Below, piece after piece: positions 8,461-22,078 of a stretch of 64,000 nt of DNA. Made by a program: the position numbers and the translations under genes. Location: positions 12,057 to 76,056 of the forward strand of contig NZ_JAUMTY010000004.1 of assembly GCF_030530965.1 (NCBI RefSeq), given 5' to 3'. The DNA comes from Corynebacterium sp. (GTDB lineage: Bacteria > Actinomycetota > Actinomycetes > Mycobacteriales > Mycobacteriaceae). Each line of letters opens with the position of its first letter. Positions within the stretch are counted from its first letter, which is position 1. The notes under the pieces are model-generated. The model did no database searches. It was not told where the DNA came from and was given only the letters and a program-made list of their open reading frames with translations.

Positions 8461-11196
8461 GTGCTTGGACTCTCCTCGATCCTCCGTGTTGGCGAAGGAC
8501 GCGCCGTCAAAAGGCTGAAGAACATCGCAGATCGCGTCATCGCCCTTGAAGATGATTATGCAGCGTTGAGCGACGCGGAATTGGCCGCGAAGACCGATGA
8601 ATTCAAACAGCGCCTGAAGGATGGCGAAACGGTTAACGACCTGCTCTTGGAGGCCTTTGCCACTGCTCGTGAAGCGTCGTGGCGAGTGCTGGGACAAAAG
8701 CACTTCCCCGTGCAGGTGATGGGCGCTGCGGCCTTACACTTCGGTTCCGTCGCCGAGATGAAAACCGGTGAAGGTAAGACCTTGACCTGTGTGCTTCCCG
8801 CATACCTTAATGCCCTGGAGGGCAAAGGCGCGCACGTCGTGACGGTGAATGACTACCTGGCTAAACGTGACTCGGAGTGGATGGGCCGTGTTCACCGTTT
8901 CTTGGGCCTGAAAGTTGATGTCATTCTCTCCGGCATGACCCCGGAAGAACGCCGCCAGGCCTACAACGCGGACATTACTTATGGCACGAACAACGAGTTC
9001 GGCTTCGACTATCTGCGCGACAATATGGCCCACTCTCTGGACGAGTTGGTGCAGCGTGGTCACCATTACGCCATCGTTGACGAGGTTGACTCCATTCTTA
9101 TCGACGAAGCACGTACGCCGCTGATTATTTCCGGCCCCGCCGAGGGAACGTCGGAGTGGTACACGGCCTTCGCGCGGATTGTGCCGCGGATGACCCGCGA
9201 TATTCACTATGAGGTGGATGAGCGGAAGCGAACCGTCGGTATTCGCGAGGAAGGTGTCGAGCTGGTTGAGGATCAGCTGGGTATCGACAACTTGTACGCG
9301 CCGCAGAATTCGCAATTAGTGGGGTACCTGAATAACGCCATTAAGGCGAAGGAACTGTTTGTTCGCGATAAGGACTACATTGTTCGCAATGGTGAGGTCC
9401 TTATTGTCGACGAGTTCACCGGCCGTGTGCTGTCGGGCCGCCGCTATAACGAGGGCATGCACCAGGCTATCGAGGCCAAAGAAGGCGTAGAGATCCAGGC
9501 CGAGAACCAGACCTTGGCGACGATTACGCTGCAGAATTACTTCCGCCTGTACGACAAACTCGCCGGCATGACCGGTACCGCGGAGACTGAGGCGTCTGAG
9601 CTGCACCAGATCTACAAGCTCGACGTGAACCAGATTCCGACCAACCGGCCCAACCAGCGTATCGACAAGAGCGACCTGGTCTACAAGACGCAGGAAGCGA
9701 AATTCCGCGCCGTGGCTGACGACATCGAAGAACGCGTGCAAAAGGGGCAGCCGGTGTTGGTCGGTACGACCTCCGTCGAGCGCTCCGAGTACTTGTCGCA
9801 CCTGCTGCAGTCGAAGGGTGTGCGGCACAGCGTGCTGAACGCGAAGCACCACGAGGAAGAGGCGCAGGTTGTTGCGCAGGCCGGCCGATTGGGTGCGGTC
9901 ACCGTCGCTACGAACATGGCTGGTCGTGGTACGGACATCGTGCTCGGCGGTAACCCGGACATTATCGCGGATATTAACCTGCGTCAGCGCGGGCTCGATC
10001 CGGTGGAGACCCCCGAAGAGTACGAGCAGGCGTGGGATGAGGAGATCGCGCGCGTTCGCGATGCCTCGAAGAAGGAAGCGAAAGAGGTTTGCGAGGCCGG
10101 TGGCCTGTACGTGCTGGGCACGGAACGTCACGAGTCGCGTCGCATTGATAACCAGTTGCGTGGTCGTTGTGCACGTCAGGGCGACCCCGGTGAAACGCGG
10201 TTCTATCTCTCGATGCGCGATGAGCTAATGACGCGCTTCGTCGGGCCGTCCATGGAAGCCATGATGAATCGCCTCAACGTGCCGGACGATGTCCCGATCG
10301 AGGCGAAGATGGTGACCAACGCCATCAAGAGTGCGCAGACGCAGGTCGAAAGCCAGAACTTCGAGATGCGCAAGAACGTCTTGAAGTACGACGAGGTCAT
10401 GAACTCCCAGCGTAAAGTCATCTACGCTGAGCGTCGTCAGATTCTCGAGGGCCTGGATCTGCGCGACCAGGTTCGCGCCATGATCGACGACACCATCTCC
10501 GCGTACGTCTATGCGGAGACCGCTGACGGGTACGTTGAGGACTGGGACCTGGGTGCATTGTGGAACGCCCTGGAGAGCCTCTATGGGCCGACGATGAGTT
10601 GGCAGTCCCTCATCGATTCGTCGGAATATGGTCCGGCCGGGGAGCTTCCTGTCGAAGATCTGCGTCGGGCATTGATTGATGACGCGTTGGCCCAGTACGA
10701 GGACCTTGAGAAGGTCGTTGAGGCCATCGGGGGCGACGAGCAGATGCGTAACCTGGAGCGCTACACCCTGTTGAACGTCGTGGATCAGAAGTGGCGCGAA
10801 CACCTCTACGAGATGGATTACCTCAAAGAAGGTATCGGTTTGCGCGCGATGGCCCAGCGCGATCCCCTAGTTGAGTATCAGCGCGAGGGTGGCGACATGT
10901 TCCGCAAGATGGAGGACGGCATCAAGGAAGAGGCCGTCCGGCAGCTGTTCATGGTTCGCCAGCAGATCGAAGCGAATAAGATGCAGCAAAATGCCGACGT
11001 CAACGGTGACGGCGAAGTCGACGCGACCGACTTCGCGGGCGAGCGCCAGGAAGTGCAGATGAGCTACTCCGGGCCGGATGAGACCGGTTCTGCGTCGGCA
11101 GTGAATGAGGGTGACGCAGAGGCTCAGCCGAAGAACCGTCGTGAACGTCGTGCGGCTGCTCGGGCTCAGCGCAAGAGCGGACGTCACGCTCGGTAA
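8461..11196 (+). CDS. secA: preprotein translocase ATPase SecA
   Basis: GTG start, [14 protein letters not shown]... DEAD-like motor, 911 aa. Confidence 0.95.
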
Positions 11197-11247
11197 CTGA
11201 TTGCCCTCCCGCGTGGAGGGCTCCGTTCATGTGGAGTGCCCGGATGT

Positions 11248-11904
11248 TCACATGAACCGGAGTGTCGCTATCCGGTAGGACGTCCGGGTTTTGGCCGCCT
11301 TACCAGCCAGTATTCGCACCCGACCTGGCTGGTGTGACCGGGGGAGGCGTGCTTGCCACGTTCCGCAGAATTCAACAAAGCGGGGGCGTTCTCCTTCGGC
11401 CTCGTTCGTCGAGCAGTGCACCATGATGAGCCGGCCCGCCACGATGGGGGCATGGGGTCTGGTGCTCAGGCGGGACAGTGTGGTGAGTGATTGACGAACA
11501 ACGGGGGCGAAATCGTCGGGGGATAATTTGGATGGCGGCCGGTGGCCGCTCGCGGTCTCTAGCGCGATGGTGACGAGTCTTCGGATTACGGCATTGGGGG
11601 TTGCCAGAGGAATTGGTGAGTAGCCGGCTTCGGATGGTGCCGGGCTGAGTAGAGAACGTTGCGCTGCAGGATTCTCCTCGTATTCGTTGGTGTCCACGTA
11701 CCCGCTGGTGTCCGCGTGATCATTGGTGTAGTCGGTGGCATCCAGAGCTGCGTGGCTCGTGACGTGATACAACAAGGTGAAACCGGGGATGGGCGCTAGC
11801 CAGTCCGGTTCGGTGAAGCGTCGGACCGGAGAAGGGGCTAGGACATTCGACCTGGTGGCTATCGCTTCTTCCGCTGCTGAGTTCATAGTGGTTGCAGTGT
11901 TCAT
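11248..11904 (-). CDS. Rv3235-family conserved actinobacterial protein (function unknown)
   Basis: Pro/Ala-rich, C-terminal ...RLVTIALETASGHRPPSKLSP...VHCSTNEAEG...FCGTWQARL. Located downstream of secA as in mycobacteria. Start uncertain (ORF runs to 12033). Confidence 0.5.
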   Translation of the reverse strand: MNTATTMNSAAEEAIATRSNVLAPSPVRRFTEPDWLAPIPGFTLLYHVTSHAALDATDYTNDHADTSGYVDTNEYEENPAAQRSLLSPAPSEAGYSPIPLATPNAVIRRLVTIALETASGHRPPSKLSPDDFAPVVRQSLTTLSRLSTRPHAPIVAGRLIMVHCSTNEAEGERPRFVEFCGTWQARLPRSHQPGRVRILAGKAAKTRTSYRIATLRFM

Positions 11905-12031
11905 ACTTGGTTTGACGTAAAAATGCGCTCTTGGTTCCATCCGGCGCGAGATATGCCACTCCATAGTCATATATGCCACGCCCACACTGAGACAGGGCAT
12001 CGAATCCGAAGTTCGATTACGATAGTGCGTC

Positions 12032-12442
12032 ATGAGAGGTTTGATTGTGGATTATTGTGGCGTTTTAGACGTGTCCGAGGAGGACGCGGACCGGTGGCGC
12101 GCCCTGCTCCAAGCAGCGAAAGCAAATGGCGTGGCCACCGCTGTTTTGTCGAATGATCCCGGCGGACCCCAAGCAGATCCCATCCGCGAGTGGGAACGCT
12201 CTGGCACCGTCGATGCCGTCGTCCTTTCCGGTGAGGTCGGGGCGGATAAGCCGTCGGAGGAAGTTTTCCAGGCAGCTGCCGACGCTATCGAACTCCCACT
12301 GAGCGATTGTGTTCTGGTGGATGATTCGATCGAAAACGTCAAGGGTGCTGTGGAATCCGGAATGGTCGGGGTGCTGTACCAGCAGTTTGACCGGACGGTT
12401 GTACAGGTGACGGGCTTGTTCGGTCTGGATGGTGACTTCTAG
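12032..12442 (+). CDS. HAD-superfamily hydrolase (small)
   Basis: Motif I DYCGVL, motif III K in DKPSEEVF, motif IV VDDSIENV. Confidence 0.6.
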   Translation: MRGLIVDYCGVLDVSEEDADRWRALLQAAKANGVATAVLSNDPGGPQADPIREWERSGTVDAVVLSGEVGADKPSEEVFQAAADAIELPLSDCVLVDDSIENVKGAVESGMVGVLYQQFDRTVVQVTGLFGLDGDF

Positions 12443-12959
12443 GTTGGCAACAATGCGGATTTACGTGCCGGCCACGTTCAGTACGTTGCAGGAGCTGGCG
12501 GAGAACAAATCTATGCCGGTACGTAGCGGTGTCGCCTTTGCCGTCACCCCGGCTTTGCGCGAGTACTTCACTTCGGGTGACGACGAAGAGCTGGGCTATC
12601 AGGCGTATTTAGATGCGGGCCGGGCTTCCTTGCGGTTGCTCTCGGTGGGGGACGAAGACCGTTTCCCTCATCGCCGTGTCATCCTCACTTTCGAGGTGGA
12701 TGAGTCCACAGTGACTCCGGACCCGACGTCGGGCGAATCAACGGTCCGGTTGGACCCGCCGACATTATCTGCCGATGATCTTGCGTCCATTCATATCGAC
12801 GTCAAACAGGCTGAAGAGGATACAGCGCAGGCGTTACGCGTCATCGACGAAGCCGACTTGGGCGACGACGATGCGGAGCATCTCCTGGCTAACTGCGAGG
12901 ATCACGACCTCGCGTGGTACGACCCTCAGGAGCTGTCGATGGTGGTTCAGCTTTTGTAG
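12429..12959 (+). CDS. conserved hypothetical protein, acidic
   Basis: Coherent ORF. Likely true start MRIYVPATFSTL at 12453. No family recognised. Confidence 0.5.
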   Translation: MVTSRLATMRIYVPATFSTLQELAENKSMPVRSGVAFAVTPALREYFTSGDDEELGYQAYLDAGRASLRLLSVGDEDRFPHRRVILTFEVDESTVTPDPTSGESTVRLDPPTLSADDLASIHIDVKQAEEDTAQALRVIDEADLGDDDAEHLLANCEDHDLAWYDPQELSMVVQLL

Positions 12960-14586
12960 AACTTGCCGACGCTGACCCTGCCGATGCAGATCCGGCAGGT
13001 GGAGACCCTGCCGACGGAGAGTGCATGCCCTGATCCTGGGCGCTGTCCTCCGCCACCTTTTCAATCCGATGCCAGCCCGGCTCAGTGGTGTGAGTGCTTC
13101 GTGACGGCCGAGCAGCCTTTTGCGACCGCATATCGTCGGCAAACGGACCATGCTGAGCAGTGGCGACGCCGGCCTTATTGGGTGTGACCGTGCGCCGGAA
13201 TAGCCAATTCTGCCCCTTCTGTGTCGCGCGCACAGCGAGCGCTGCAGCAATGACGGCGACGAACATGGCGAGGTAGCCGTCGGCACCCTGATTGGTGAAC
13301 TCGACGGCTGCGACCAGCCCAAATAGCGGTGCGGCCATCGTCGTCGAGAGGAATGCGGCCGCTCCCAACAGTGCGCACGCACGGGGGTCGACGCTGGGGA
13401 ACATCCATTGTCCCACGTAGCCCAACACGCATCCGAGTAACGCGCCTAAGGCGAAGGAGGGCGTCAGGATTCCGCCGACCGCGCCCGCCCAGAAGCTCGC
13501 GCAGGTCACCGCCAGGCGGATGATGAACACTGCGATGGCCCCGCCGAGTGTCACCCGCGCGGTGAGCGCAAGGTTGGCGGAGTACGCACCATTACCGCTG
13601 GATCCCAGGAAAAAGAGCGACAGAACCCCGACGACGGCCATCACGCCGGTCAGGGCCAGCCATTGCCAGCGTGCCGACACCGGCCGCGCGGATGCCCGAT
13701 GAGCCAGGCGCGCGAAATAGTCGCCGGCCAGGCCGGCTATCGAGCCGACGACAACAGCGCAGAGCAAAGTCAGTGCGCTTTCGTTTAATTGCGCCGCGTC
13801 ATAGGTGACTCGTGGTGCGCCCAGGAGGCCCGAGACCGTCGTCGCGACCACCGAGCAGGTCATCGTCGTCACGACTGCTCGTACGGAGGCGGATACCAGG
13901 AGCAGTTCGATGGTGAACAAAGCGCCGGCCAAGGGTAGGTGGAACGACGCTGCCATGCCTGCCCCGGCCGCCGACGCAACGAGGAGCCGGAGGGTTCGTC
14001 GGTCTACCTCCCACAACCGAGAGAACGCGGAGGCAATGAGTGCCCCGATCTGGCGGGGAGCCTGCTCACGACCGATGGGGACGCCCGCAGACACGCTGAT
14101 GATCTGCAGCAATGAGCTAGAGAGCGTGGAGCCGACGGGCATCGTGGTGCCCTGCATGGCCTGGGGGATAGAGACGCGCCGGGTGGATCGCCAGTGCAAC
14201 ACGGCCCACCCGACCCCGGAGATGAATCCCACGGCCACGAGGTGAATGAGCAGATTGATGGTGGGGCCGAGCGAATCGAGGGGAGATATCTCGTGTTGAT
14301 GGTCGGAGCCGTACACTAACCGCTCGGTGAACAAGATCAGTTGGGCCACTCCTGCGATGAACGCGCCCACGATAATCCCGATGATGGTGGCGTAGACGGC
14401 GACGAGCCCGATGGGAGATCGTGACACGCTGGAGGTGGGCACGGGCGGGAATTGCGAAATGTCATCATCGCCGGCCGACGCGATGGAGTACGACCGCAAT
14501 CGGGTACGGAGGGGGTGTTCGCACGACGAATCGGTGGCGCGCGTGTTTCTCTGTTGCCAGTTGTTCACCACCCTGCGCCACCACAT
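12889..14586 (-). CDS. ClC-family chloride/anion channel or antiporter paralog A, with low-complexity S/A/G/P C-terminal tail
   Basis: Multi-TM. GREQAP (GREGP-like, gating Glu present) and GGILTPS (GxFxP-like) motifs. 3' end overlaps convergent gene by about 70 nt. Confidence 0.8.
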   Translation of the reverse strand: MWWRRVVNNWQQRNTRATDSSCEHPLRTRLRSYSIASAGDDDISQFPPVPTSSVSRSPIGLVAVYATIIGIIVGAFIAGVAQLILFTERLVYGSDHQHEISPLDSLGPTINLLIHLVAVGFISGVGWAVLHWRSTRRVSIPQAMQGTTMPVGSTLSSSLLQIISVSAGVPIGREQAPRQIGALIASAFSRLWEVDRRTLRLLVASAAGAGMAASFHLPLAGALFTIELLLVSASVRAVVTTMTCSVVATTVSGLLGAPRVTYDAAQLNESALTLLCAVVVGSIAGLAGDYFARLAHRASARPVSARWQWLALTGVMAVVGVLSLFFLGSSGNGAYSANLALTARVTLGGAIAVFIIRLAVTCASFWAGAVGGILTPSFALGALLGCVLGYVGQWMFPSVDPRACALLGAAAFLSTTMAAPLFGLVAAVEFTNQGADGYLAMFVAVIAAALAVRATQKGQNWLFRRTVTPNKAGVATAQHGPFADDMRSQKAARPSRSTHTTEPGWHRIEKVAEDSAQDQGMHSPSAGSPPAGSASAGSASASSTKAEPPSTAPEGRTTRGRDPRS

Positions 14587-14603
14587 GAAAATAGGTTAAG
14601 GGT

Positions 14604-15917
14604 TCACTGGCGTGTCAAGAAAGAAAAGGTTCCTGCCCCGCGACATTTTTTACTCAATGTGGGGTAGATCAGGGGCAGACTTGCGACGATCACCGCGACG
14701 GCGATGGCAGGAATGCTCGAGAGCCCTTGCCCTGTGAATTCCACGGTGATGAGGAGGGCGAATAGGGGAGCGCGTTGTGCCGTGGCGAGGAAGGCTGCCC
14801 CGCCCAAGACAGCGCAGGCGAGGATCGGTGTTCCGTGGACATGTCCGGCGAGGACGTTGGGCGCGCTTATTGCACTTCCGACGGAGCCCATGACCTCTGC
14901 GAGAGCAACGCCCGCCAAGGCCCCGGCCATCACGCCGATAGAGAAGCTCGGTGTCAGGATCCCGCCGAACGCTCCGCTGGCGAGGCTGATGAGCGTGACG
15001 AGGATGTTCAGCGCACAGAGTACCGCAAGAGCTTTCCACCCTATCGACGCGTCGAACGCGGAGACCGCCGCGTATTTTCCGTTGCCGGCAAGAGCGGGAA
15101 GGCTCATTGCTGCGACGCCGACCAGGGCGAACCCGATGGGCATGCGGTACAGCACGCGGGAGTCGTGGGTGGCCCAGTGTTGGCACCAACGAGCAAGGCG
15201 ACGGAACGCGCTGCCCAAAGGGCCGATGATCACGCCAACCACGATGGCGAACAGCAAGGTTGTCCATGAACAGGTCACTCGCGGCGCGCTGTATTGCAGC
15301 CCGGTGGGCTCGATAAGAGCGGATACGACGGTCGCGATCACGCAGGTCGCACTCACGACGATGACTTTGTGAAGTCGGATGCCCACCCCGCACAATTCGA
15401 TGGCGAACGCGATACCCGCCAAGGGAACGTGATAGGCGGCGGCAAGTCCCGCCCCTGCGGCCGACGCAATAAGCAGTCGCCGGAGTTCGGGAGACATGCG
15501 CGCCCATGCGGCAACGCGGTCGGCCCATAATGCACCAGCGACGCGCGGTGCGTTCTCCCGACCCACGGACGCGCCGGTGCCGACTTGCGCCACCTGGAGG
15601 GCAACATTTGTGCTGGTCTCGGGGACCGGGGATGGTTGTCCGTCGAGCGACTGTGGCACTGATGGTTGCGGACGTCCCCAGCGTTGGAGGGCCCACCACG
15701 CAATACTTCCGACGATGCCCGATGCGATGTACACGGTCAGAATTCGGCCGGGGGAGGTGGCGTCGGTAGGAATTGTCGCGGTGGATTCGTCAGCACCGAA
15801 AGAGAGTTTCTCGACGGCCAGGAAAAGGATGGTCAGGAGTGCTGCGGATACTCCGGTGAGCGCAGCCACCCCGGCAACGCACAGACTGAGGACGGCGAGG
15901 CGGCGACTACGAGTCAT
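14604..15917 (-). CDS. ClC-family channel paralog B
   Basis: GRENAP and GGILTPS motifs. ATG at 15915-15917 overlaps rsgA stop by 11 nt. The 606-aa track ORF extends spuriously into rsgA. Confidence 0.8.
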   Translation of the reverse strand: MTRSRRLAVLSLCVAGVAALTGVSAALLTILFLAVEKLSFGADESTATIPTDATSPGRILTVYIASGIVGSIAWWALQRWGRPQPSVPQSLDGQPSPVPETSTNVALQVAQVGTGASVGRENAPRVAGALWADRVAAWARMSPELRRLLIASAAGAGLAAAYHVPLAGIAFAIELCGVGIRLHKVIVVSATCVIATVVSALIEPTGLQYSAPRVTCSWTTLLFAIVVGVIIGPLGSAFRRLARWCQHWATHDSRVLYRMPIGFALVGVAAMSLPALAGNGKYAAVSAFDASIGWKALAVLCALNILVTLISLASGAFGGILTPSFSIGVMAGALAGVALAEVMGSVGSAISAPNVLAGHVHGTPILACAVLGGAAFLATAQRAPLFALLITVEFTGQGLSSIPAIAVAVIVASLPLIYPTLSKKCRGAGTFSFLTRQ

Positions 15918-17040
15918 CCCGATTGAGGTCCCACTCGTCATTGGATCGCAAGGTTTCCAGGACGGACCGGATCGCGTGGACGCGCCGGGCGGTTGCGCCG
16001 GTGGCGGTGTCGAGCGCGCACTCGGGGTCGGCGGGCGGCCCCATGTGGGTGCATCCCCGCGGGCAGTCGGTGATGAGTTCGGCGAGGTCCTCGAACGCGG
16101 CGATGACCGTATCGGGATCGACATGGGCCAGGCCGAAGGAACGAATTCCTGGGGTGTCGATGATCCACCCGGCGTCGGCTGGTTCGTCTTCCGTGGCGTG
16201 CGCGGTGTCACGCGGTGGTTCGCCGTCCAGGGTATCCGGCGAAGTGTTGTCTTCGAGCAAAGCGCCCGTCGGCAAGCGGAGGGCCACCGATTGCGTGGAC
16301 GTGTGTTTTCCCTTGCCGACGCCGGACACTTCCCCGGTAGCTCGGTCTGCGTCCGGGACGAGGCGGTTGACCAGGGTTGATTTGCCGACGCCCGAGTGCC
16401 CGATGAGCGCCGTGACATGCCCACGCGTCAGGCGTCGGACGTCGGTAATGTCGTCTTCTTGTCCGGCGATGACGATGCGGATGTCGAGATCCTCGAATTC
16501 GTGCGCAAAGGGCGCGGGATCGGTGAGGTCGCTCTTGGTCAGGCACAGGATGGGGGAGATGCCGCCGGCGAAAGCGGCCACGAGGGCACGCTCCACGAAC
16601 CCCGCCCGGGGCGGCGGATCCGCGACGGACGAGACAATGAGCAGCTGATCAGCATTGGCGACGACGATGCGTTCGTAGGGGTCGTTGTCGTCCGCAGTGC
16701 GCCGGAGGATGGAGCGCCGATCCGCCAGCTTCACGATCCGCGCGAGCGTCCCTGGGTTTCCCGACGTGTCGCCGACCACGCCCACACGGTCACCGACAAC
16801 GATGGGGGTTCGGCCGAGTTCGCGGGCGCGCATACACACGATGGCGCGTGCGTCGTCGGAAGCGTCTGGTGTGTCGTCCAGGACAACTCCCCACCGTCCG
16901 CGATCTTTGGTGATGACCATGCCCCACTGCGCATCCTTGTGGGAGGGACGGTCTTTCGTGCGTGGCCGGGAGCCTTTTCCTGGGCGAATGTGGACATCGC
17001 TTTCATCCCAGTCGCGTGAGGGGCGTCGTCGTGCGCTCAT
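15907..17040 (-). CDS. rsgA: ribosome small-subunit-dependent GTPase A
   Basis: [11 protein letters not shown]-loop. C-terminal zinc motif CPRGCTH...C. 4-nt overlap with aroA. Confidence 0.85.
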
Positions 17041-18530
17041 TCATGGCCACCTTCTGCAGAATTCGTGGCTGTCAGCCACGTTCGTGCAAAATCGGGGAAG
17101 GTTTTCGAAGTAGTCCCAATATTTTCGACGCGAACCCCGGGCACGGCCAAACCGATGACGGCGCCGGCTGTGGCCATGCGGTGATCGTCGTAGGTGGGCC
17201 AGGTGTCGCCGTGAAGTGGGGCCGGGGTGATGATGAGGCCGTCGTCGGTTTCCTCGACTTGGCCGCCGAGCGCGTTGATGTTGGTGGCCAGGGCATGCAG
17301 GCGGTCGGTTTCGTGTCCGCGCAGGTGAGCGATCCCGTACAGGTGGGAGGGGGTATCCGCGAGGGCGGCGAGGGCCGCGATAGTGGGGGTAAGCTCGCCG
17401 ACGTCGTGGAGATCCATCGTGATCCCGGTCAGGCCGGTGCCGGATGTGCGACCGTCTGCGGGCGCATCAGGACCAGTGACGACGAGGTCGTGGTCGACGA
17501 GGTCACAATGAGCCCCCATGTTCTCCAGGATGGTGCGGAATTGGTCTCCCGGTTGCGTTGTTTTGGTGGGCCAGTTCGGGATGACGACGCGCCCTCCCGT
17601 GACTGCCGCGGCGGCCATAAATGGGGTGGCGTTGGACAGGTCGGGCTCGATAACCCACCGGTTCGGCTGAATCTCACCAGGCGCAACCTGCCACGTGTGC
17701 GGTTCCGGCATCGTGACATCAATACCCGCATCCCGCAGCATGTCGATAGTCATCTCGATGTGCGGCTGTGAGGGAAGCGTGGCCCCTGTGTGCGTCACCG
17801 TAATCCCATGAGTGAAGCGCGCCGCCGAGAGCAGCAGCCCCGAAATAAATTGCGAGCTCGACGACGCATCAATGCGGATAGCTCCCCCGCGCGGTCCCTC
17901 AGTAGTGCCGACGTGTGACGCGCGCGGATTCTCGGTCGACGAGTGCCCATCCGACGATGCTGACGCCCCCTCAATCCGCAGCGGAAGTGAGTCGCCCTCG
18001 ACGGTGACGCCTAATTGACGCAGCGCGTCGGCCATGGTTTTTAGCGGACGCTTGCGCGCGTGCGGGTCGCCGTCGATAAGAACTGGCCCGTCGGCAAGAG
18101 CCGCGACGGGAGGTAGGAAGCGCATAACCGTCCCGGCGAGTCCGCAGTCGACAGTTGCTCCGTGCAGTTGAGACGTCGGCGTGACGAGGAGGGAAAGCGA
18201 TGCCGGTGGTGTTCGTCGGCAATTATTGTCTGTTGACGACGAGTCGGACGAAGAGTCCGACGACGAATCGCTCTCCTCGATAGTGACCCCCATAGCTCGC
18301 AGTGCAGCGATCATGAGGTCCGTGTCCCGGCTGCGCAGCGCACCTGTAATGGTGGAGGGGCCCGATGCCAGTGCCGCGAGAATGAGCGCCCGGTTTGTCA
18401 TGGATTTGGAACCGGGGATGGTCACGGTGGCGGTGACAGGGCGTTGGGGAGTGGGGGCCTCCCACAGTGGGGTGTCGGGTGACTGCGCTTTCACGGTTGT
18501 CATTGTTGCATTATCGGCGGGGGACTGCAT
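17037..18530 (-). CDS. aroA: 3-phosphoshikimate 1-carboxyvinyltransferase (EPSP synthase) with internal (SDSS)n insertion
   Basis: [19 protein letters not shown]... canonical EPSPS N-terminus. [13 protein letters not shown] insert near residue 90. Confidence 0.85.
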
Positions 18531-18562
18531 AGAAGTGCGTCATGGCGGGGGTTGGCACAAAT

Positions 18563-19126
18563 CTAGTGGCCTTCGAGTATGTCGGCGGTGGTGGCGTCGG
18601 TGAGTGAAATGAGGTCCTGCGGGGATAGCCCGATATCGAGGCCGCGCTTGCCCCCAGAGACGTACATGGTGTCGCAAAGGAGGGCGGTTTCGTCGATAAC
18701 GGTAGGAAGGCGATGCTTCTGGCCGAGCGGAGAGATCCCGCCGGTGATATATCCGCTGCTGCGCTCTGCATCCTTAGGCTTCGCCATGCTGGCTTTTCCG
18801 TGCCCGTATCCGCGTTCCTTCAAAGCGACGGCAGCGTGTTTGAGGGACAGCCTCCCGGTGACGGGGACCACCGCTACCGCCAGGTCGGGCTTGGGTTCTT
18901 TCCCGGCAGCGAGGTCAATGAGCAGGGTTTTGAAAATTTGATCGGCCTCGATTCCTTCGCTCGCCAGCATCTCAGCAGCTTCTTCGCCGTAATTGTTTGT
19001 GTGGTGGTCGAATTCCCGAACCTCGTGATCGACGCCGGCATCTGCGCACACTTGTAGCGCGGGTGTTGCGGCTCGGCCTGTTTTCTTCCCTGACGCTGCT
19101 TTCCCATGACCCTTCTTGCCACTCAT
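18563..19126 (-). CDS. ybaK: Cys-tRNA(Pro)/Cys-tRNA(Cys) deacylase YbaK, with Lys/Gly-rich N-terminal extension
   Basis: YbaK/EbsC fold signature ...GGISPLG...TLLIDL.... MSGKKGHGKAASGKK N-terminus. Confidence 0.75.
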   Translation of the reverse strand: MSGKKGHGKAASGKKTGRAATPALQVCADAGVDHEVREFDHHTNNYGEEAAEMLASEGIEADQIFKTLLIDLAAGKEPKPDLAVAVVPVTGRLSLKHAAVALKERGYGHGKASMAKPKDAERSSGYITGGISPLGQKHRLPTVIDETALLCDTMYVSGGKRGLDIGLSPQDLISLTDATTADILEGH

Positions 19127-19173
19127 GGCTGCTATTTGTACACCGTCACGGAAAGTAAATACACGGTGGGGGC

Positions 19174-19278
19174 ATGTCGATTACGATCATGTCGGTTACG
19201 ATGAAGAACGATGACTGCGAATGTTGCGACTGTTCTGTGTCGATCGATGTCGGGAACTTGGCTGGTGATAGGGAATAA
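19174..19278 (+). CDS. candidate 34-aa poly-Cys small ORF in sigH leader (MSITIMSVTMKNDDCECCDCSVSIDVGNLAGDRE)
   Basis: ATG preceded by GGTGGGGG. Contains the 14-bp tandem repeat atgtcg(a/g)ttacgat. Same strand as sigH, 108 nt upstream. Confidence 0.25.
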   Translation: MSITIMSVTMKNDDCECCDCSVSIDVGNLAGDRE

Positions 19279-19385
19279 CCAATCGCGCCGTCCCGCTGGC
19301 AACCACTATGCGTGCCGACGCGGCTCGTTCGCGAGTCTAAGCACAGAAGAGAGTCTTCAAGGTGCACGTCGTGAGGAGGTTCTCT

Positions 19386-19973
19386 GTGGCTAATCAAGCC
19401 GATTTTGAAGAGCAAGCAATGCCGCTGTTGGACCAGCTCTATGCGGGTGCGCTGCGGATGACACGGAATCCACCGGACGCGGAAGACCTTGTTCAAGAAA
19501 CGTATATGAAGGCGTATCGCAATTTCGGGTCTTTTAAAGAAGGCACGAATTTGAAGGCCTGGATGTATCGCATTATGACGAATGCGTACATCAATGATTA
19601 CCGCAAGGCCCAGCGTCGGCCGACGGAATCGCCGACTGATGAGATCACCGATTGGCAATTGGCCGCCAACGCCGAGCATGACTCGACGGGGCTGGAGTCG
19701 ACCGAGGTTGAAGCACTAAAAAACATTCCCGACGATCGTATTCGTGATGCCCTCATGGATCTTCCCGAGGACAATCGGATGGTTGTTTACTACGCCGACG
19801 TCGAGGGGATGCCGTATAAGGAGATCGCTCATGTGATGGGTACTCCGGTGGGAACGGTGATGAGTCGCCTTCACCGCGGAAGAAAAAAGCTGCGGGAAGC
19901 GTTAAAGGAAGTGGCCTCGGAACGTGGCATAGGCGGCGTCCAAACTGCTGGATCTGCTGAAACACATAAATAA
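19386..19973 (+). CDS. sigH: ECF sigma factor SigH/SigR-like
   Basis: Sigma70 regions 2 and 4 ([14 protein letters not shown]..., ...[26 protein letters not shown]). GTG start after GGAGG. Followed by a ZAS anti-sigma. Confidence 0.85.
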
Positions 19974-20008
19974 ATCCGAAAAGTACCGTCAAGAATAAGT
20001 ACCGTCAC

Positions 20009-20350
20009 ATGTATGAAAGGAACGACCCCATGACTCATCACTGCGGGAATGAACCCAAGGATGAGGAGCCTGGCGCGTCAGACTCCTCAGCATCTGCCGG
20101 CGGGTATGCGCTCGATAGTTGTTGTCACGACATTATCGACGAGTTGAACGATCTTCTGGATGAACCATGCAATCCGGAGCGACGTCAGGCGTTAATGGAG
20201 AGGGTGAATAGCTGCCCGGAGTATTTTGAGGCCTACGGGATTGAGCAAACCGTGCGTAGTCTCCTTCGTCGTAGCTGCTCAGAGCCGGCGTCTCGCGAGT
20301 TGCGTGCCCGGATTCACGTGGCGATTACGGAGCAAATTCGCTACGAGTGA
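20009..20350 (+). CDS. rshA: zinc-binding anti-sigma factor (ZAS) RsrA/RshA-like
   Basis: HxxxCxxC-type motif ...CCHDIIDELNDLLDEPC...SCPEY.... Immediately downstream of sigH. Confidence 0.8.
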   Translation: MYERNDPMTHHCGNEPKDEEPGASDSSASAGGYALDSCCHDIIDELNDLLDEPCNPERRQALMERVNSCPEYFEAYGIEQTVRSLLRRSCSEPASRELRARIHVAITEQIRYE

Positions 20351-20995
20351 GCCGGGTGTGTTGTCTCCGCGCCGTTGTCGTCGGTCTCAGACACGGGGAG
20401 TGTCGACGATATTTAGGGGGTAAGTAGCAGGAGACACCGTGCGCAATGAGCTTGCTCAAGAATCTCTCTACAGGGGGTGCAGCGGGTCCATTCATGTTCT
20501 TCTGGGGAAGAGCGTCAGTCGAGGCTAACGAGGGAAAATACCCAAAATACAATTGCGCGCTGGCTGACCGTAGGCACTAAAAATAAGGACCTCGGCGGCA
20601 ATAATAATGGGTAATATTCACAAGTTCATAGATGGATCGGTTGCTTCAATTTTGGCGGATGGTTGGTGGCAACGCCTCGTAGTCAGCACTCAGAATTGAA
20701 TTTGGACCGATTCTGCCGAAATGCTGAATAATTATATTCGCTATAGTTTTACTCACTCGATCTCGAAAATCGATTGAGCTTTCGTCACCTACGCGGCACT
20801 GCAATATGTATCAAACTTGGACGAGCCCACAGAGTCACTAAAGGCAGTTTGTAGAGTGATGGCCGCTGGGGGAATTGTTGCCGTATGATGGCTGCCCGGG
20901 GGAATTGTTGCTGTGGAGCTGTTCGCCTCCGAGATGTACCACACTCCTGTGTAACCCAGTCTTATGAGCCTGAAGCTGGATGGAAAACCGGTGTC

Positions 20996-21127
20996 ATGAA
21001 AGGATATGTGCTTCCTGCAAATCGTCAAGAAGCAGCCGAAGTTCTTCGGGCAGCAGGGTTTTCATCTGTTGAGATCAAACTCAAAGCCGGGTACCTCCGA
21101 TGTGCAGCCACAAATATGGAACTTTAA
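20996..21127 (+). CDS. candidate 43-aa ORF (MKGYVLPANRQEAAEVLRAAGFSSVEIKLKAGYLRCAATNMEL) in low-GC island
   Basis: Low-GC codon usage unlike flanks. Weak RBS. Could be a gene fragment. Confidence 0.2.
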   Translation: MKGYVLPANRQEAAEVLRAAGFSSVEIKLKAGYLRCAATNMEL

Positions 21128-21166
21128 CCAACAAAACCTAACTCTTAACTACCTGAAAGGACTTTC

Positions 21167-21340
21167 ATGACACGTTATTTCACGGCCCTGATGGTTTACA
21201 TGTATGTGTTCTCGATTGTCGGAATTACGTTCGATGGTTTTGATTCGAAGGAGGGAGCTATCACTACTGCGCTTCTTTCTTCAGCGGCTGCTTTTGTGGT
21301 CTATTTCCTATATCCAATCTTCCGCCGCCGCGATAAGTAG
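21167..21340 (+). CDS. 57-aa two-helix hydrophobic membrane protein (not in ORF track, below length cutoff)
   Basis: AAGGA RBS 6 nt upstream of ATG. MTRYFTALMVYMYVFSIVGITFDGFDSKEGAITTALLSSAAAFVVYFLYPIFRRRDK. Strong terminator follows. Confidence 0.5.
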   Translation: MTRYFTALMVYMYVFSIVGITFDGFDSKEGAITTALLSSAAAFVVYFLYPIFRRRDK

Positions 21341-21354
21341 TCAAATATCTTATG

Positions 21355-21403
21355 GGCGGTGCGGACACAATCATCCAGGATTCTGTCCGCACCGCCTTTT
21401 GTT
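21355..21403 (+). terminator. rho-independent terminator (13-bp perfect stem ggcggtgcggaca/tgtccgcaccgcc plus TTTTGTT)
   Basis: Seen directly. Follows the 57-aa ORF. Confidence 0.7.
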
Positions 21404-21432
21404 GCTTAACCCGATATTTATAGACGAGAAAA

Positions 21433-21465
21433 GGGTGAACCTCATGGTGAGTTCACCCTTTTTGT
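21433..21465. terminator. bidirectional intrinsic terminator (gggtgaactc/gagttcaccc, T-tracts on both strands)
   Basis: 10-bp stem. TTTTTGTT on plus strand, TTTTCTCGTC on minus strand. Serves minus-strand bL37. Confidence 0.65.
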
Positions 21466-21519
21466 TATGAATTGTGTCAGCCATTCGGCAGCTGCACTAG
21501 ATGTTTCACGCGAGGTGTT

Positions 21520-21594
21520 TTATGCGCTGGGCCGCTTGCCGTGGTTAGCCTTCTTCTTGCGGCGGTCCTTGCGCTTGCGTCCACGTTTGCTCAT
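21520..21594 (-). CDS. 50S ribosomal protein bL37 (24 aa, MSKRGRKRKDRRKKKANHGKRPSA)
   Basis: AAGGAGA RBS 6 nt upstream. Near-identity of pattern to mycobacterial bL37 (MAKRGRKKRDRKHSKANHGKRPNA, recalled from memory). Not in ORF track because under 60 aa. Confidence 0.7.
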   Translation of the reverse strand: MSKRGRKRKDRRKKKANHGKRPSA

Positions 21595-21626
21595 CGCGGC
21601 TCTCCTTTACTTGATTGGGGGCAGTG

Positions 21627-21643
21627 GACGTGCAGTGCACGTC
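21627..21643. promoter_or_regulatory. 17-bp palindrome gacgtgca-g-tgcacgtc in the bL37 5' region
   Basis: Perfect 8-bp arms. Lies between a TATAAA-like box and the bL37 RBS on the minus strand. Confidence 0.4.
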
Positions 21644-21817
21644 GTGTCTTTTTATAGGGCCGGGCCACGCGCGGGCGGTCACGACGCCATAGGAAGGTGA
21701 TTTTATCGAATGGTCATTGTGATAGCTAACGCGGTCTGATCCCGGGTTTCAGTTATCTACCACGGATCGCCTGGTGAGCTCACGCGCGCTGTGCCGTCGT
21801 CAGTGAACTAACGAGCC

Positions 21818-22078
21818 TTAGACCGTAGCGCGACGACGGGAGTTGTTGCGGTTGCGGCGGCGCTTCAGAGTGCGTCGTTCGTCTTCGCTCATGCCACCCC
21901 AGACGCCGGCGTCCTGGCCGGTCTCGATGGCCCAAGCGAGGCACTGAGAGGTCACTGGGCAGCGGTTGCAGACGACCTTTGCACGAGCGATCTGTGCCAG
22001 TGCGGGGCCGGAGTTTCCGACGGGGAAGAACAGTTCGGGGTCTTCGTCACGACAAACGGCTTTGTGGCGCCAATCCAT
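21818..22078 (-). CDS. whiB1: WhiB-family Fe-S transcription factor, WhiB1-like
   Basis: MDWRHKAVCRDEDPELFFPVGNSGPALAQIARAKVVCNRCPV...GVWGGMSEDERR four-Cys WhiB signature. Confidence 0.9.
   Translation of the reverse strand: MDWRHKAVCRDEDPELFFPVGNSGPALAQIARAKVVCNRCPVTSQCLAWAIETGQDAGVWGGMSEDERRTLKRRRNRNNSRRRATV

Follow-up and report, generated by a model that had tools for sequence, protein, structure and literature searches.

Two diverged CLC-family genes beside aroA and rsgA in a Corynebacterium related to C. kroppenstedtii

Genes at the locus

In the window, by which we mean the whole 64,000-nt stretch of Corynebacterium DNA analyzed here, the ORF list and a read of the sequence place four minus-strand genes in tight series: aroA, rsgA and two CLC-family genes, ClC-B and ClC-A (Table 1). 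The aroA stop and the rsgA start overlap by 4 nt (ATGA); the ClC-B ATG at 15917 falls within the rsgA 3′ end, an 11-nt overlap; and a 17-nt gap, in which the sequence read reveals no Shine–Dalgarno-like purine run, separates ClC-B from ClC-A. These junctions are the ones that the first-pass annotation had reported. A second ATG in the ClC-B frame is present at 15941; from the 15917 start the protein begins MTRSR, as does its C. kroppenstedtii ortholog, and the gene calls of related contigs agree on that start. The 606-aa ORF across this region is the ClC-B frame continued back through rsgA in another frame and is therefore spurious, as had been supposed, with strong family matches residing in rsgA itself.

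Table 1 Features of the aroA–rsgA–CLC locus, with positions in the window
Feature	Position	Strand	Basis
ybaK-type Cys-tRNA(Pro) deacylase gene	18563-19126	-	Pfam tRNA_edit and NCBIfam TIGR00011; same place in L001
aroA (EPSP synthase), 497 aa	17037-18530	-	PF00275 E 2e-111; TIGR01356 377 bits, cutoff 287
rsgA (small-subunit biogenesis GTPase), 377 aa	15907-17040	-	PF03193 E 5e-42; TIGR00157 134 bits, cutoff 100
Spurious 606-aa ORF	14604-16424	-	ORF list; different frame from rsgA, which has strong family matches
ClC-B, 437 aa, CLC family, C. kroppenstedtii-group 'B' type	14604-15917	-	PF00654 E 2e-59; orthologs 437 aa
ClC-B helix-F motif GRENAPR, gating glutamate E121	15543-15563	-	Translation; E121 N-caps helix F in model
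ClC-B helix-N motif GGILTPS, GxFxP counterpart, Leu for Phe357	14946-14966	-	Translation, alignment, model
Spacer ACCCTTAACCTATTTTC, 17 nt, ClC-B stop (14604) to ClC-A ATG (14586)	14587-14603	-	Sequence read
ClC-A, 565 aa, CLC family, common Corynebacterium 'A' type	12889-14586	-	PF00654 E 3e-58; phylogeny
ClC-A helix-F motif GREQAPR, gating glutamate E174	14053-14073	-	Translation; E174 N-caps helix F in model
ClC-A helix-N motif GGILTPS	13456-13476	-	Translation, model
15-nt tandem repeat, 3.8 copies, in ClC-A tail	12964-13020		
DUF6912 gene, convergent	12429-12959	+	PF21853 E 2e-52

Only 32 nt separate aroA from the upstream ybaK gene, which has the same orientation; the co-directional cluster may therefore comprise five genes, with ybaK possibly the first. 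At the other end, the last 71 nt of the DUF6912 gene overlap the ClC-A 3′ end, and the identical 71-nt overlap is present on three related contigs (L001–L003). The aroA product carries a low-complexity SDSSS insertion, and a composition scan detected no GC anomaly over the CLC genes. The tandem repeat in the ClC-A tail coincides with a 15-aa difference in length between ClC-A and its nearest relative, P0001.

ClC-A and ClC-B match the Pfam Voltage_CLC family (PF00654) over the transmembrane domain with 198 and 202 bits, respectively (cutoff 24.8), and are 37% identical to each other, which bears out the first-pass description of two divergent tandem paralogs. A CLC fold is predicted with high confidence for each of them. 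The AlphaFold2 model of ClC-B has a pLDDT of 92.4 and a pTM of 0.92 and, in a Foldseek comparison confined to this model, matches CLC-ec1 with probability 1.00 and a TM score of 0.76. In the AlphaFold2 model of ClC-A, a core with pLDDT >90 (about residues 60–460) is flanked by a poorly predicted N-terminal extension of ~58 aa (pLDDT about 43–54) and a disordered C-terminal tail of ~100 aa (pLDDT <50).

Gene order across the genus and the two CLC types

Protein similarities identify the window organism as a relative of C. kroppenstedtii within the genus Corynebacterium. The nearest named relatives of ClC-B are found in Corynebacterium sp. SFY-M4 (87%) and C. kroppenstedtii (59%), and the rsgA products of the window and of C. 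kroppenstedtii share 81% identity. The same four genes recur with the same spacings on the three independent contigs L001–L003, at ~95% identity, and rsgA–CLC–CLC also occurs in the much more distant lineage L027; given this repetition, the arrangement is not due to chance. Nor is the linkage of aroA and rsgA to CLC genes unusual in this genus, as the first-pass annotation had held. Adjacency of aroA, rsgA and a CLC gene is seen in 9 of the 11 Corynebacterium contexts examined (window lineage L001–L003, L027, C. kroppenstedtii L022/23, C. hansenii L004, L025/26, C. aquilae L024, C. hindlerae L029, C. halotolerans L030, C. choanae L031) and is missing in the other two, C. deserti (L028) and C. 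alimapuense (L015). We propose that (ybaK)–aroA–rsgA–CLC represents a conserved Corynebacterium gene-order block, located between sigH and the DUF6912/HAD/secA genes. In five species (C. aquilae, C. hindlerae, C. halotolerans, C. hansenii and C. kroppenstedtii), the CLC downstream of rsgA belongs to the same clade and has the same motifs as the window CLCs, and the slot aroA-rsgA-CLC ... DUF6912-HAD-secA is shared with the window lineage. Their slot holds a single CLC, whereas the slot in the window lineage and in L027 holds two diverged types.

In phylogenetic analysis, ClC-A groups with the A type, which is the single copy in most corynebacteria, and ClC-B with the B group, a type found only in the C. 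kroppenstedtii group, each in 200 of 200 bootstraps; A and B were exclusive sisters in 0 of 200. The CLC slot in the window lineage would thus hold a pair that arose by an old duplication inside the genus. Both genes are intact and, judged by dN/dS values against a 95% relative (ClC-A 0.05, ClC-B 0.13; for comparison, rsgA 0.08 and aroA 0.14), under purifying selection.

The layout is that expected of an operon, with all genes on the same strand and junctions of −4, −11 and +17 nt. Because stops and starts overlap or nearly abut, co-transcription with translational coupling is likeliest, and the CLC genes would then ride on a housekeeping transcript, leading to constitutive low-level production. 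The single transcript envisaged in the first pass fits these short junctions: no terminator-like hairpin was found at the aroA/rsgA/ClC-B/ClC-A junctions and no sigma-70-like promoter in positions 12000–20000, using an E. coli-type consensus that would miss typical Corynebacterium promoters. Alternatively, the CLC genes could be read from their own promoter inside rsgA, with adjacency reflecting compact gene order and no functional coupling. The rsgA/CLC spacing ranges from −14 to +247 nt across contexts, with 237–247 nt between the two genes in C. aquilae and C. choanae; a distance of ~240 nt leaves room for a promoter, so coupling to rsgA does not hold throughout. Moreover, in the C. glutamicum group the A-type gene is located elsewhere in the genome, away from rsgA, which implies a function independent of that gene. 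By contrast, rsgA and CLC genes overlap by 4 to 14 nt in six lineages, and the window junction has no promoter-like or terminator-like site by the E. coli-type consensus, making a separate promoter unlikely here. A different possibility concerns assembly, as the first-pass annotation had suggested that the tandem paralogs could form heterodimers. That ClC-A and ClC-B are obligate partners in a heterodimeric CLC would agree with their close spacing (17 nt in the window, 9 nt in L027) and shared B-then-A order in two lineages with only 63% identity between their rsgA proteins, with purifying selection on both copies, and with the lack of a visible Shine–Dalgarno sequence before ClC-A, which suggests coupled translation. 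Nevertheless, C. kroppenstedtii has the B ortholog alone and most other corynebacteria the A type alone, and because each type also occurs by itself, an obligate heterodimer is unlikely. Both copies also retain the gating glutamate and other clade-invariant residues, and a literature search found no heterodimeric CLC from bacteria, leaving obligate pairing very improbable. Each paralog would probably pair with itself as a homodimer; mixed dimers are possible without being required.

Pore motifs of the G-R-E-x-A-P-R clade

Translation and alignment confirm the non-canonical motifs listed in the first pass, GRE(N/Q)AP and GGILTPS, and the GSGIP motif was not found in ClC-A or ClC-B. These features are not special to the two genes, as had been implied. 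By sequence, ClC-A and ClC-B belong to a large, experimentally uncharacterized CLC clade of at least 134 sequences from Actinobacteria and some Proteobacteria. Its signature is G-R-E-x-A-P-R in helix F together with GGxL(T/I)P in helix N; GRE(N/Q)AP and GGxLTP thus mark the whole clade and are not peculiar to the window locus. The clade as a whole likewise lacks GSGIP and has no recognizable helix R or central tyrosine. The gating glutamate (Glu_ex, E148 in CLC-ec1) occupies an invariant column across the 134 clade and 9 canonical sequences. After Glu-x, the clade has Ala in 133, Pro in all 134 and Arg in 124 sequences, and the near invariance of this A-P-R triplet indicates constraint, not drift. 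Among the same 134 sequences, the Glu_in column (E203 in CLC-ec1) contains Val (55), Ile (44) or Leu (29) and never Glu, with Leu in both ClC-A and ClC-B; the Phe357 column contains Leu (110), Phe (16) or Ile (8); and E202 (ec1 numbering) is kept in 126.

Alignment of the inner part of the pore is less straightforward. An hhalign comparison with CLC-ec1 gives a 5-residue deletion over AGGSG, and by profile alignment the counterpart of the central serine S107 is R82 in ClC-B and T135 in ClC-A or falls in the deletion. In the models, a conserved serine (S86 in ClC-B, S139 in ClC-A) caps the N-terminus of helix D, which is shortened. The last membrane helix is unbroken in both AlphaFold2 models (residues 399–421 of ClC-B and 435–466 of ClC-A), and neither contains a helix R, as judged from predicted secondary structure and a weak alignment. 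Y418 is paired with Y445 by hhalign at a posterior of ≤0.2, in a column that is a gap in 127 of 134 clade members, and the central tyrosine (Y445, helix R N-terminus) does not appear recognizable in ClC-A or ClC-B.

Probable transport function

The likeliest function of ClC-A and ClC-B would be the movement of anions, probably chloride, across the membrane, with the external glutamate as the gate. Judged by the missing residues, the internal glutamate and the tyrosine inner gate, transport that is channel-like, or that has weak or different proton coupling, is more likely than the strict 2Cl−/1H+ exchange seen in ClcA. CLC-ec1 (E. coli ClcA, a 2Cl−/1H+ exchanger; PDB 1KPK/1OTS) resembles the window CLCs in its fold, PF00654 membership, E202, a gating glutamate at the helix F N-terminus and a GG-x-x-x-P turn at the helix N N-terminus. 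By contrast, identity is only 20–23%, and the window CLCs lack GSGIP, have GRE(N/Q)AP in place of GREGP and Leu in place of both Phe357 and E203, and contain no recognizable helix R or Tyr445. In the eukaryotic channels ClC-0, -1, -2 and -K, Glu_in is Val (PMC5362633), and the window CLCs are aliphatic there too, a resemblance of one residue. These channels keep GSGIP, the helix-R Tyr_cen and cytoplasmic CBS domains, none of which the window CLCs have.

Both proteins could instead be ordinary ClcA-like 2Cl−/1H+ exchangers for acid or salt tolerance whose motif changes are neutral drift. The CLC fold, the gating glutamate, the near-invariance of E202 in the clade and the rank of CLC-ec1 as top solved-structure match accord with this explanation. 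CLC-F proteins are proton-coupled without the canonical internal glutamate. CmCLC, which has Thr at Glu_in, is also still proton-coupled (PMC5362633). Nevertheless, Glu_in is Glu in no clade member, GSGIP is missing, helix R and Tyr_cen are undetectable in the models, and the A-P-R constraint is not what drift would leave. The best scores against the NCBIfam equivalogs (ClcA NF003640, ClcB NF002437, ClcB-like NF002505) were 134 and 107 bits, below cutoffs of 350–482, with ClcA itself at 114 and 94 bits against 350. Ordinary exchange is therefore improbable, and the first-pass separation of these proteins from ordinary Cl−/H+ antiporters stands, given that no NCBIfam cutoff was reached and neither protein has the internal proton glutamate. 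Its further suggestion, a fluoride-type subclade, fares worse. The CLC-F clade was discovered through the fluoride riboswitch, and control by this riboswitch is common, not universal. CLC-F proteins (CLC-eca, PDB 6D0J; Brammer et al. 2014, PMC4113899) and the window CLCs are all small and prokaryotic, keep the gating glutamate, lack the canonical helix-D central serine motif and have an altered helix-F motif. However, the helix-D serine position is Asn or Met in CLC-F, paired with a helix-F Thr or Val close to the gating glutamate (PMC4113899); in the window CLCs, the modeled helix-D N-cap is Ser and the helix-F position, taken as the residue after GREG, is Ala (133 of 134 in the clade). No fluoride riboswitch (RF01734) was found at E ≤1 in positions 10000–22000 or at the gathering score in the whole window. 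In the PDB, ClC-A is closer to CLC-ec1 (1e-20) than to CLC-F (5e-10), and ClC-B had no match to CLC-F structures at E ≤0.001. A constitutive housekeeping cluster is, in addition, ill-suited to an inducible resistance gene. That ClC-A and ClC-B are fluoride exporters of the CLC-F type is thus extremely improbable.

Taken together, we consider it reasonably probable that ClC-A and ClC-B are homodimeric members of an uncharacterized CLC clade, the products of an old duplication within a conserved gene-order block, which would be co-transcribed with aroA and rsgA and would mediate channel-like or weakly proton-coupled anion transport.

Age and maintenance of the ClC-A/ClC-B pair

The tandem genes ClC-B and ClC-A are an old, maintained duplication within a large CLC clade that carries a distinctive pore signature. 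The two proteins share 37% identity. In a neighbour-joining tree (411 trimmed columns, 200 bootstraps), ClC-A joins the A type, the single-copy CLC of most corynebacteria, in 200/200 bootstraps; within it, ClC-A plus the relative P0005 is the sister of the remaining A type in 194/200. ClC-B clusters with its counterparts from C. kroppenstedtii and SFY-M4 (B type), likewise in 200/200, and all Corynebacterium copies form a single group in 173/200. Exclusive sisterhood of ClC-A and ClC-B appears in 0/200, which rules out a recent tandem duplication. The first-pass annotation's description of two divergent tandem paralogues is upheld. A second lineage, L027, also has a B-then-A tandem, with 9 nt between the genes; its rsgA fragment is 63% identical to rsgA of the window, farther off than that of C. 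kroppenstedtii, which has the B copy only. The simplest reading is an old duplication, with both copies kept in some lineages and one lost elsewhere. Horizontal acquisition of ClC-A is not supported, as the gene shows no GC anomaly and falls inside the Corynebacterium A type; its transfer within the genus is possible.

Both genes are under purifying selection. Measured against a relative at 95% identity, ClC-A has a dN/dS of 0.05 and ClC-B one of 0.13, compared with 0.08 for rsgA and 0.14 for aroA; within ClC-A it is 0.02 in the core and 0.32 in the disordered tail. A tandem repeat in this tail falls at the site of a 15-aa insertion (GSPPAGSASAGSASA-like), seen by comparison with the nearest relative, P0001, in a fragment alignment using the rows P0001, P0002 and P0005, so tail length differs between close strains. 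The tail is also encoded by the segment that overlaps the end of a convergent DUF6912 gene, and L001-L003, the relatives at 95%, share this 71-nt overlap.

The closest proteins come from uncultured corynebacteria (93-95% identity). ClC-B is 87% identical to its counterpart in Corynebacterium sp. SFY-M4 and 59% to that of C. kroppenstedtii, and rsgA is 81% identical to C. kroppenstedtii rsgA. These protein identities place the window in a Corynebacterium that lies outside the C. kroppenstedtii group, though related to it.

Gene order around the pair

Five minus-strand genes lie head to tail in the window: ybaK, aroA, rsgA, ClC-B and ClC-A. The aroA-rsgA-ClC-B-ClC-A cluster observed earlier is confirmed, and reading of the sequence reproduces its junctions: an ATGA common to the aroA end and the rsgA start, a ClC-B ATG at 15917 that lies 11 nt within rsgA, and a 17-nt gap (ACCCTTAACCTATTTTC) from the ClC-B stop to the ClC-A ATG. 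A second in-frame ATG of ClC-B occurs at 15941; the 15917 start is backed by gene calls of related contigs and by the orthologue of C. kroppenstedtii, whose first residues are MTRSR. The 606-aa frame is spurious, as first described.

Features of the locus and its surroundings (window positions)
Feature	Position	Strand	Remarks
ybaK	18563-19126	minus	
aroA	17037-18530	minus	EPSP synthase match E 2e-111; TIGR01356 above its cut-off
rsgA	15907-17040	minus	RsgA GTPase family match; TIGR00157 above its cut-off
ClC-B	14604-15917	minus	Voltage_CLC E 2e-59
ClC-A	12889-14586	minus	Voltage_CLC E 3e-58
Spurious 606-aa ORF	14604-16424	minus	ClC-B frame extended upstream through rsgA
DUF6912 gene end	12889-12959	plus	overlaps last 71 nt of ClC-A
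ClC-A tail repeat	12964-13020		15-nt tandem repeat, 3.8 copies
aroA repeat	18235-18263		12-nt tandem repeat giving an SDSSS low-complexity run
Low-GC region	20500-21500		GC 0.46-0.48 vs ~0.6 in flanks; between a sigH/anti-sigma pair and (by synteny) a whiB gene
STnc320 Rfam match	21421-21480	minus	below threshold: 36.8 bits vs gathering score 50

Scans found no terminator-like hairpins at the gene junctions and no sigma-70-like promoters, the promoter scan being tuned to E. coli-like rather than Corynebacterium-specific sequences; no Shine-Dalgarno-like sequence was seen ahead of ClC-A. Together, the junction geometry and the lack of junction hairpins and sigma-70-like promoters argue for co-transcription and translational coupling of the cluster genes, and an operon is thus plausible. 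What did not survive is the idea that joining aroA and rsgA to CLC genes is unusual. Among 11 distinct Corynebacterium backgrounds, sampled by context look-up of single CLC relatives, aroA-rsgA-CLC occurs in the same order and orientation in nine: the window lineage (L001-L003), the L027 lineage, C. kroppenstedtii (L022/L023), C. hansenii (L004), a metagenomic species (L025/L026), C. aquilae (L024), C. hindlerae (L029), C. halotolerans (L030) and C. choanae (L031). Only in C. deserti (C. glutamicum group, L028) and C. alimapuense (L015) does the CLC gene lie elsewhere. The end of rsgA and the start of the CLC gene share 4-14 nt in 6/9 backgrounds; a gap of 5 nt lies between them in 1/9, and one of ~240 nt in 2/9. 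The conserved neighbourhood runs sigH, ybaK, aroA, rsgA, CLC, then DUF6912, a HAD hydrolase and secA.

A scan of the genome collection with the clade alignment, whose back-translated patterns were too general, gave at least 17 loci, mostly outside Corynebacterium. These loci provided a negative control, both for the neighbourhood of rsgA and for copies in tandem. Among the matches listed, rsgA lies near a clade-member CLC at 0/16 loci outside Corynebacterium. Given 9/11 backgrounds within the genus and 0/16 listed loci in other genera, the linkage is a genus-level gene order, and nothing calls for a functional link between chloride transport and ribosome assembly or the shikimate pathway.

Several variations accompany this order. 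In L004, L024, L029 and L030, the space from the CLC gene to DUF6912 holds a fatty-acid desaturase and its ferredoxin-reductase partner; ClC-A occupies this slot in the window lineage. The window aroA encodes 497 aa, whereas most of the corynebacteria examined have an aroA of about 430-440 aa. In the C. kroppenstedtii-like metagenome contig L022 (4809-6962), aroA is called at 717 aa and tblastn resolves two overlapping aroA segments, which could reflect either a duplication within the gene or an artefact of assembly; the isolate genome L023, by contrast, has a normal 502-aa aroA. In Pseudomonas spelaei (L016; 6001-7110, 9348-10529), a same-clade CLC and an aroA homologue share a strand, with the CLC 2.2 kb upstream, probably by coincidence.

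Pore signature and predicted structure

The first-pass annotation had also singled out the pore motifs of the two proteins as non-canonical. They are, but as features of a clade, tabulated here in 134 aligned sequences (Corynebacterium, Mycobacterium, Frankineae, Actinomyces and metagenomic proteins), rather than as peculiarities of two genes. Helix F reads G-R-E-x-A-P-R in this set, where canonical relatives in the same alignment have GREGP: the Glu is invariant, x is N in 72, G in 37, V in 14, A in 5 and Q in 3, and the following residues are Ala (133/134), Pro (134/134) and Arg (124/134). Helix N reads GG-x-L-(T/I)-P, with Leu (110), Phe (16) or Ile (8) at the Phe357 position. The position of the internal proton glutamate, Glu_in (E203 of CLC-ec1, the E. 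coli ClcA; the reference sequence used agrees with PDB 1KPK at all of 473 residues), holds V, I or L, and Glu in 0/134. The genome scan adds loci outside these 134, in Leifsonia, Microbacterium, Legionella, Caballeronia and Pseudomonas among the matches listed. Those from Legionella, Caballeronia and Pseudomonas (L005, L008, L016), relatives via the clade alignment, are 32-34% identical to ClC-B; should they share the signature, the clade would extend beyond Actinobacteria. In literature on Corynebacterium CLCs, the mycobacterial homologue Rv0143c and bacterial CLC heterodimers, we found no description of the clade.

AlphaFold2 models are confident for ClC-B (pLDDT 92.4, pTM 0.92) and for the ClC-A core (pLDDT >90), with ClC-A termini poorly predicted or disordered; Foldseek matches the ClC-B model to CLC-ec1 in the PDB (probability 1.00, TM 0.76). 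As in CLC-ec1, the gating glutamate is predicted to N-cap helix F and a GG turn to precede helix N in both models. Unlike CLC-ec1, modelled helix D spans just five residues (ClC-B 87-91, ClC-A 140-144), and the last membrane helix appears continuous (ClC-B 399-421, ClC-A 435-466), with no separate helix R and only low-confidence sequence after it. The GSGIP motif, of which the first reading of the sequence had seen no clear example, is missing from both proteins. Its central serine has no agreed counterpart, since sequence, profile and model readings conflict: the models N-cap helix D with S86 (ClC-B) or S139 (ClC-A), a position that is Ser or Thr in 100/134 clade members; a pairwise HMMER alignment to the Synechocystis CLC sets R82 of ClC-B against the serine; and profile-profile alignment places a five-residue deletion over the CLC-ec1 AGGSG, the residues after it having a moderate to high posterior. 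For the central tyrosine, Y445, hhalign pairs Y418 of ClC-B at a posterior of at most 0.2, and the column is a gap in 127/134 members; from these predictions we conclude that no central tyrosine is recognisable.

Transport mode and what the clade may offer

CLC-Fs are proton-coupled without a canonical Glu_in. A review describes CmCLC in the same way, and has Glu_in conserved in exchangers only, with Val in channels, and the central serine and tyrosine forming a constriction that blocks uncoupled chloride leak (PMC5362633). With the gating glutamate kept and both Glu_in and the tyrosine gate missing, channel-like or weakly coupled transport by ClC-A and ClC-B is easier to imagine; the proton coupling of CmCLC and the CLC-Fs speaks against it, however, and we hold it to be a hypothesis that is perhaps evenly balanced. 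An ordinary ClcA is disfavoured by NCBIfam scores, the best being 134 and 107 bits, which do not approach the equivalog cut-offs of 350-482 bits. The fluoride-exporter reading is rejected. CLC-Fs keep the gating glutamate, carry Thr or Val close to it in helix F, and replace the serine of helix D by Asn or Met (PMC4113899); here the helix-F position taken as marker is Ala and the modelled helix-D cap is Ser. In comparison with solved structures, ClC-A reaches 1e-20 for CLC-ec1 but 5e-10 for CLC-F, and for ClC-B no hit to CLC-F appears at E<=0.001; marker residues and this weaker similarity rule out CLC-F membership. Moreover, Rfam searches returned no fluoride riboswitch, either at positions 10000-22000 at E<=1, where only a sub-threshold sRNA match appeared elsewhere, or across the whole window at gathering score, where a single tRNA was the only match.

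More speculatively, without a tyrosine inner gate or Glu_in the G-R-E-x-A-P-R clade could work by a distinct CLC mechanism, as a gated anion channel or uniporter or as a carrier of an anion other than chloride, with A/B dimers in addition; we consider this combination improbable. In C. kroppenstedtii-related lineages, A and B come from adjacent cistrons and may also assemble into mixed dimers, and an A/B dimer, if real, would be the first heteromeric prokaryotic CLC. The suggested heterodimer stands as a possible mixed form; an obligate one is unlikely, because A and B types each occur alone in other species.

For this genome, an odd-looking operon becomes an ordinary, conserved gene order of the genus, and the fluoride reading falls away. 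The one feature of the locus that is specific to its lineage is that two old CLC paralogues are kept side by side. The locus itself is ordinary, and the modest interest sits with the clade, which is widespread in Actinobacteria, Mycobacterium and Corynebacterium included. The CLC fold is the textbook case of one fold serving both channels and proton-coupled exchangers, and the residues that set the mode are still debated. Keeping the gating glutamate while apparently lacking Glu_in, the GSGIP serine and the helix-R tyrosine, the clade is a natural experiment on channel versus exchanger mode.
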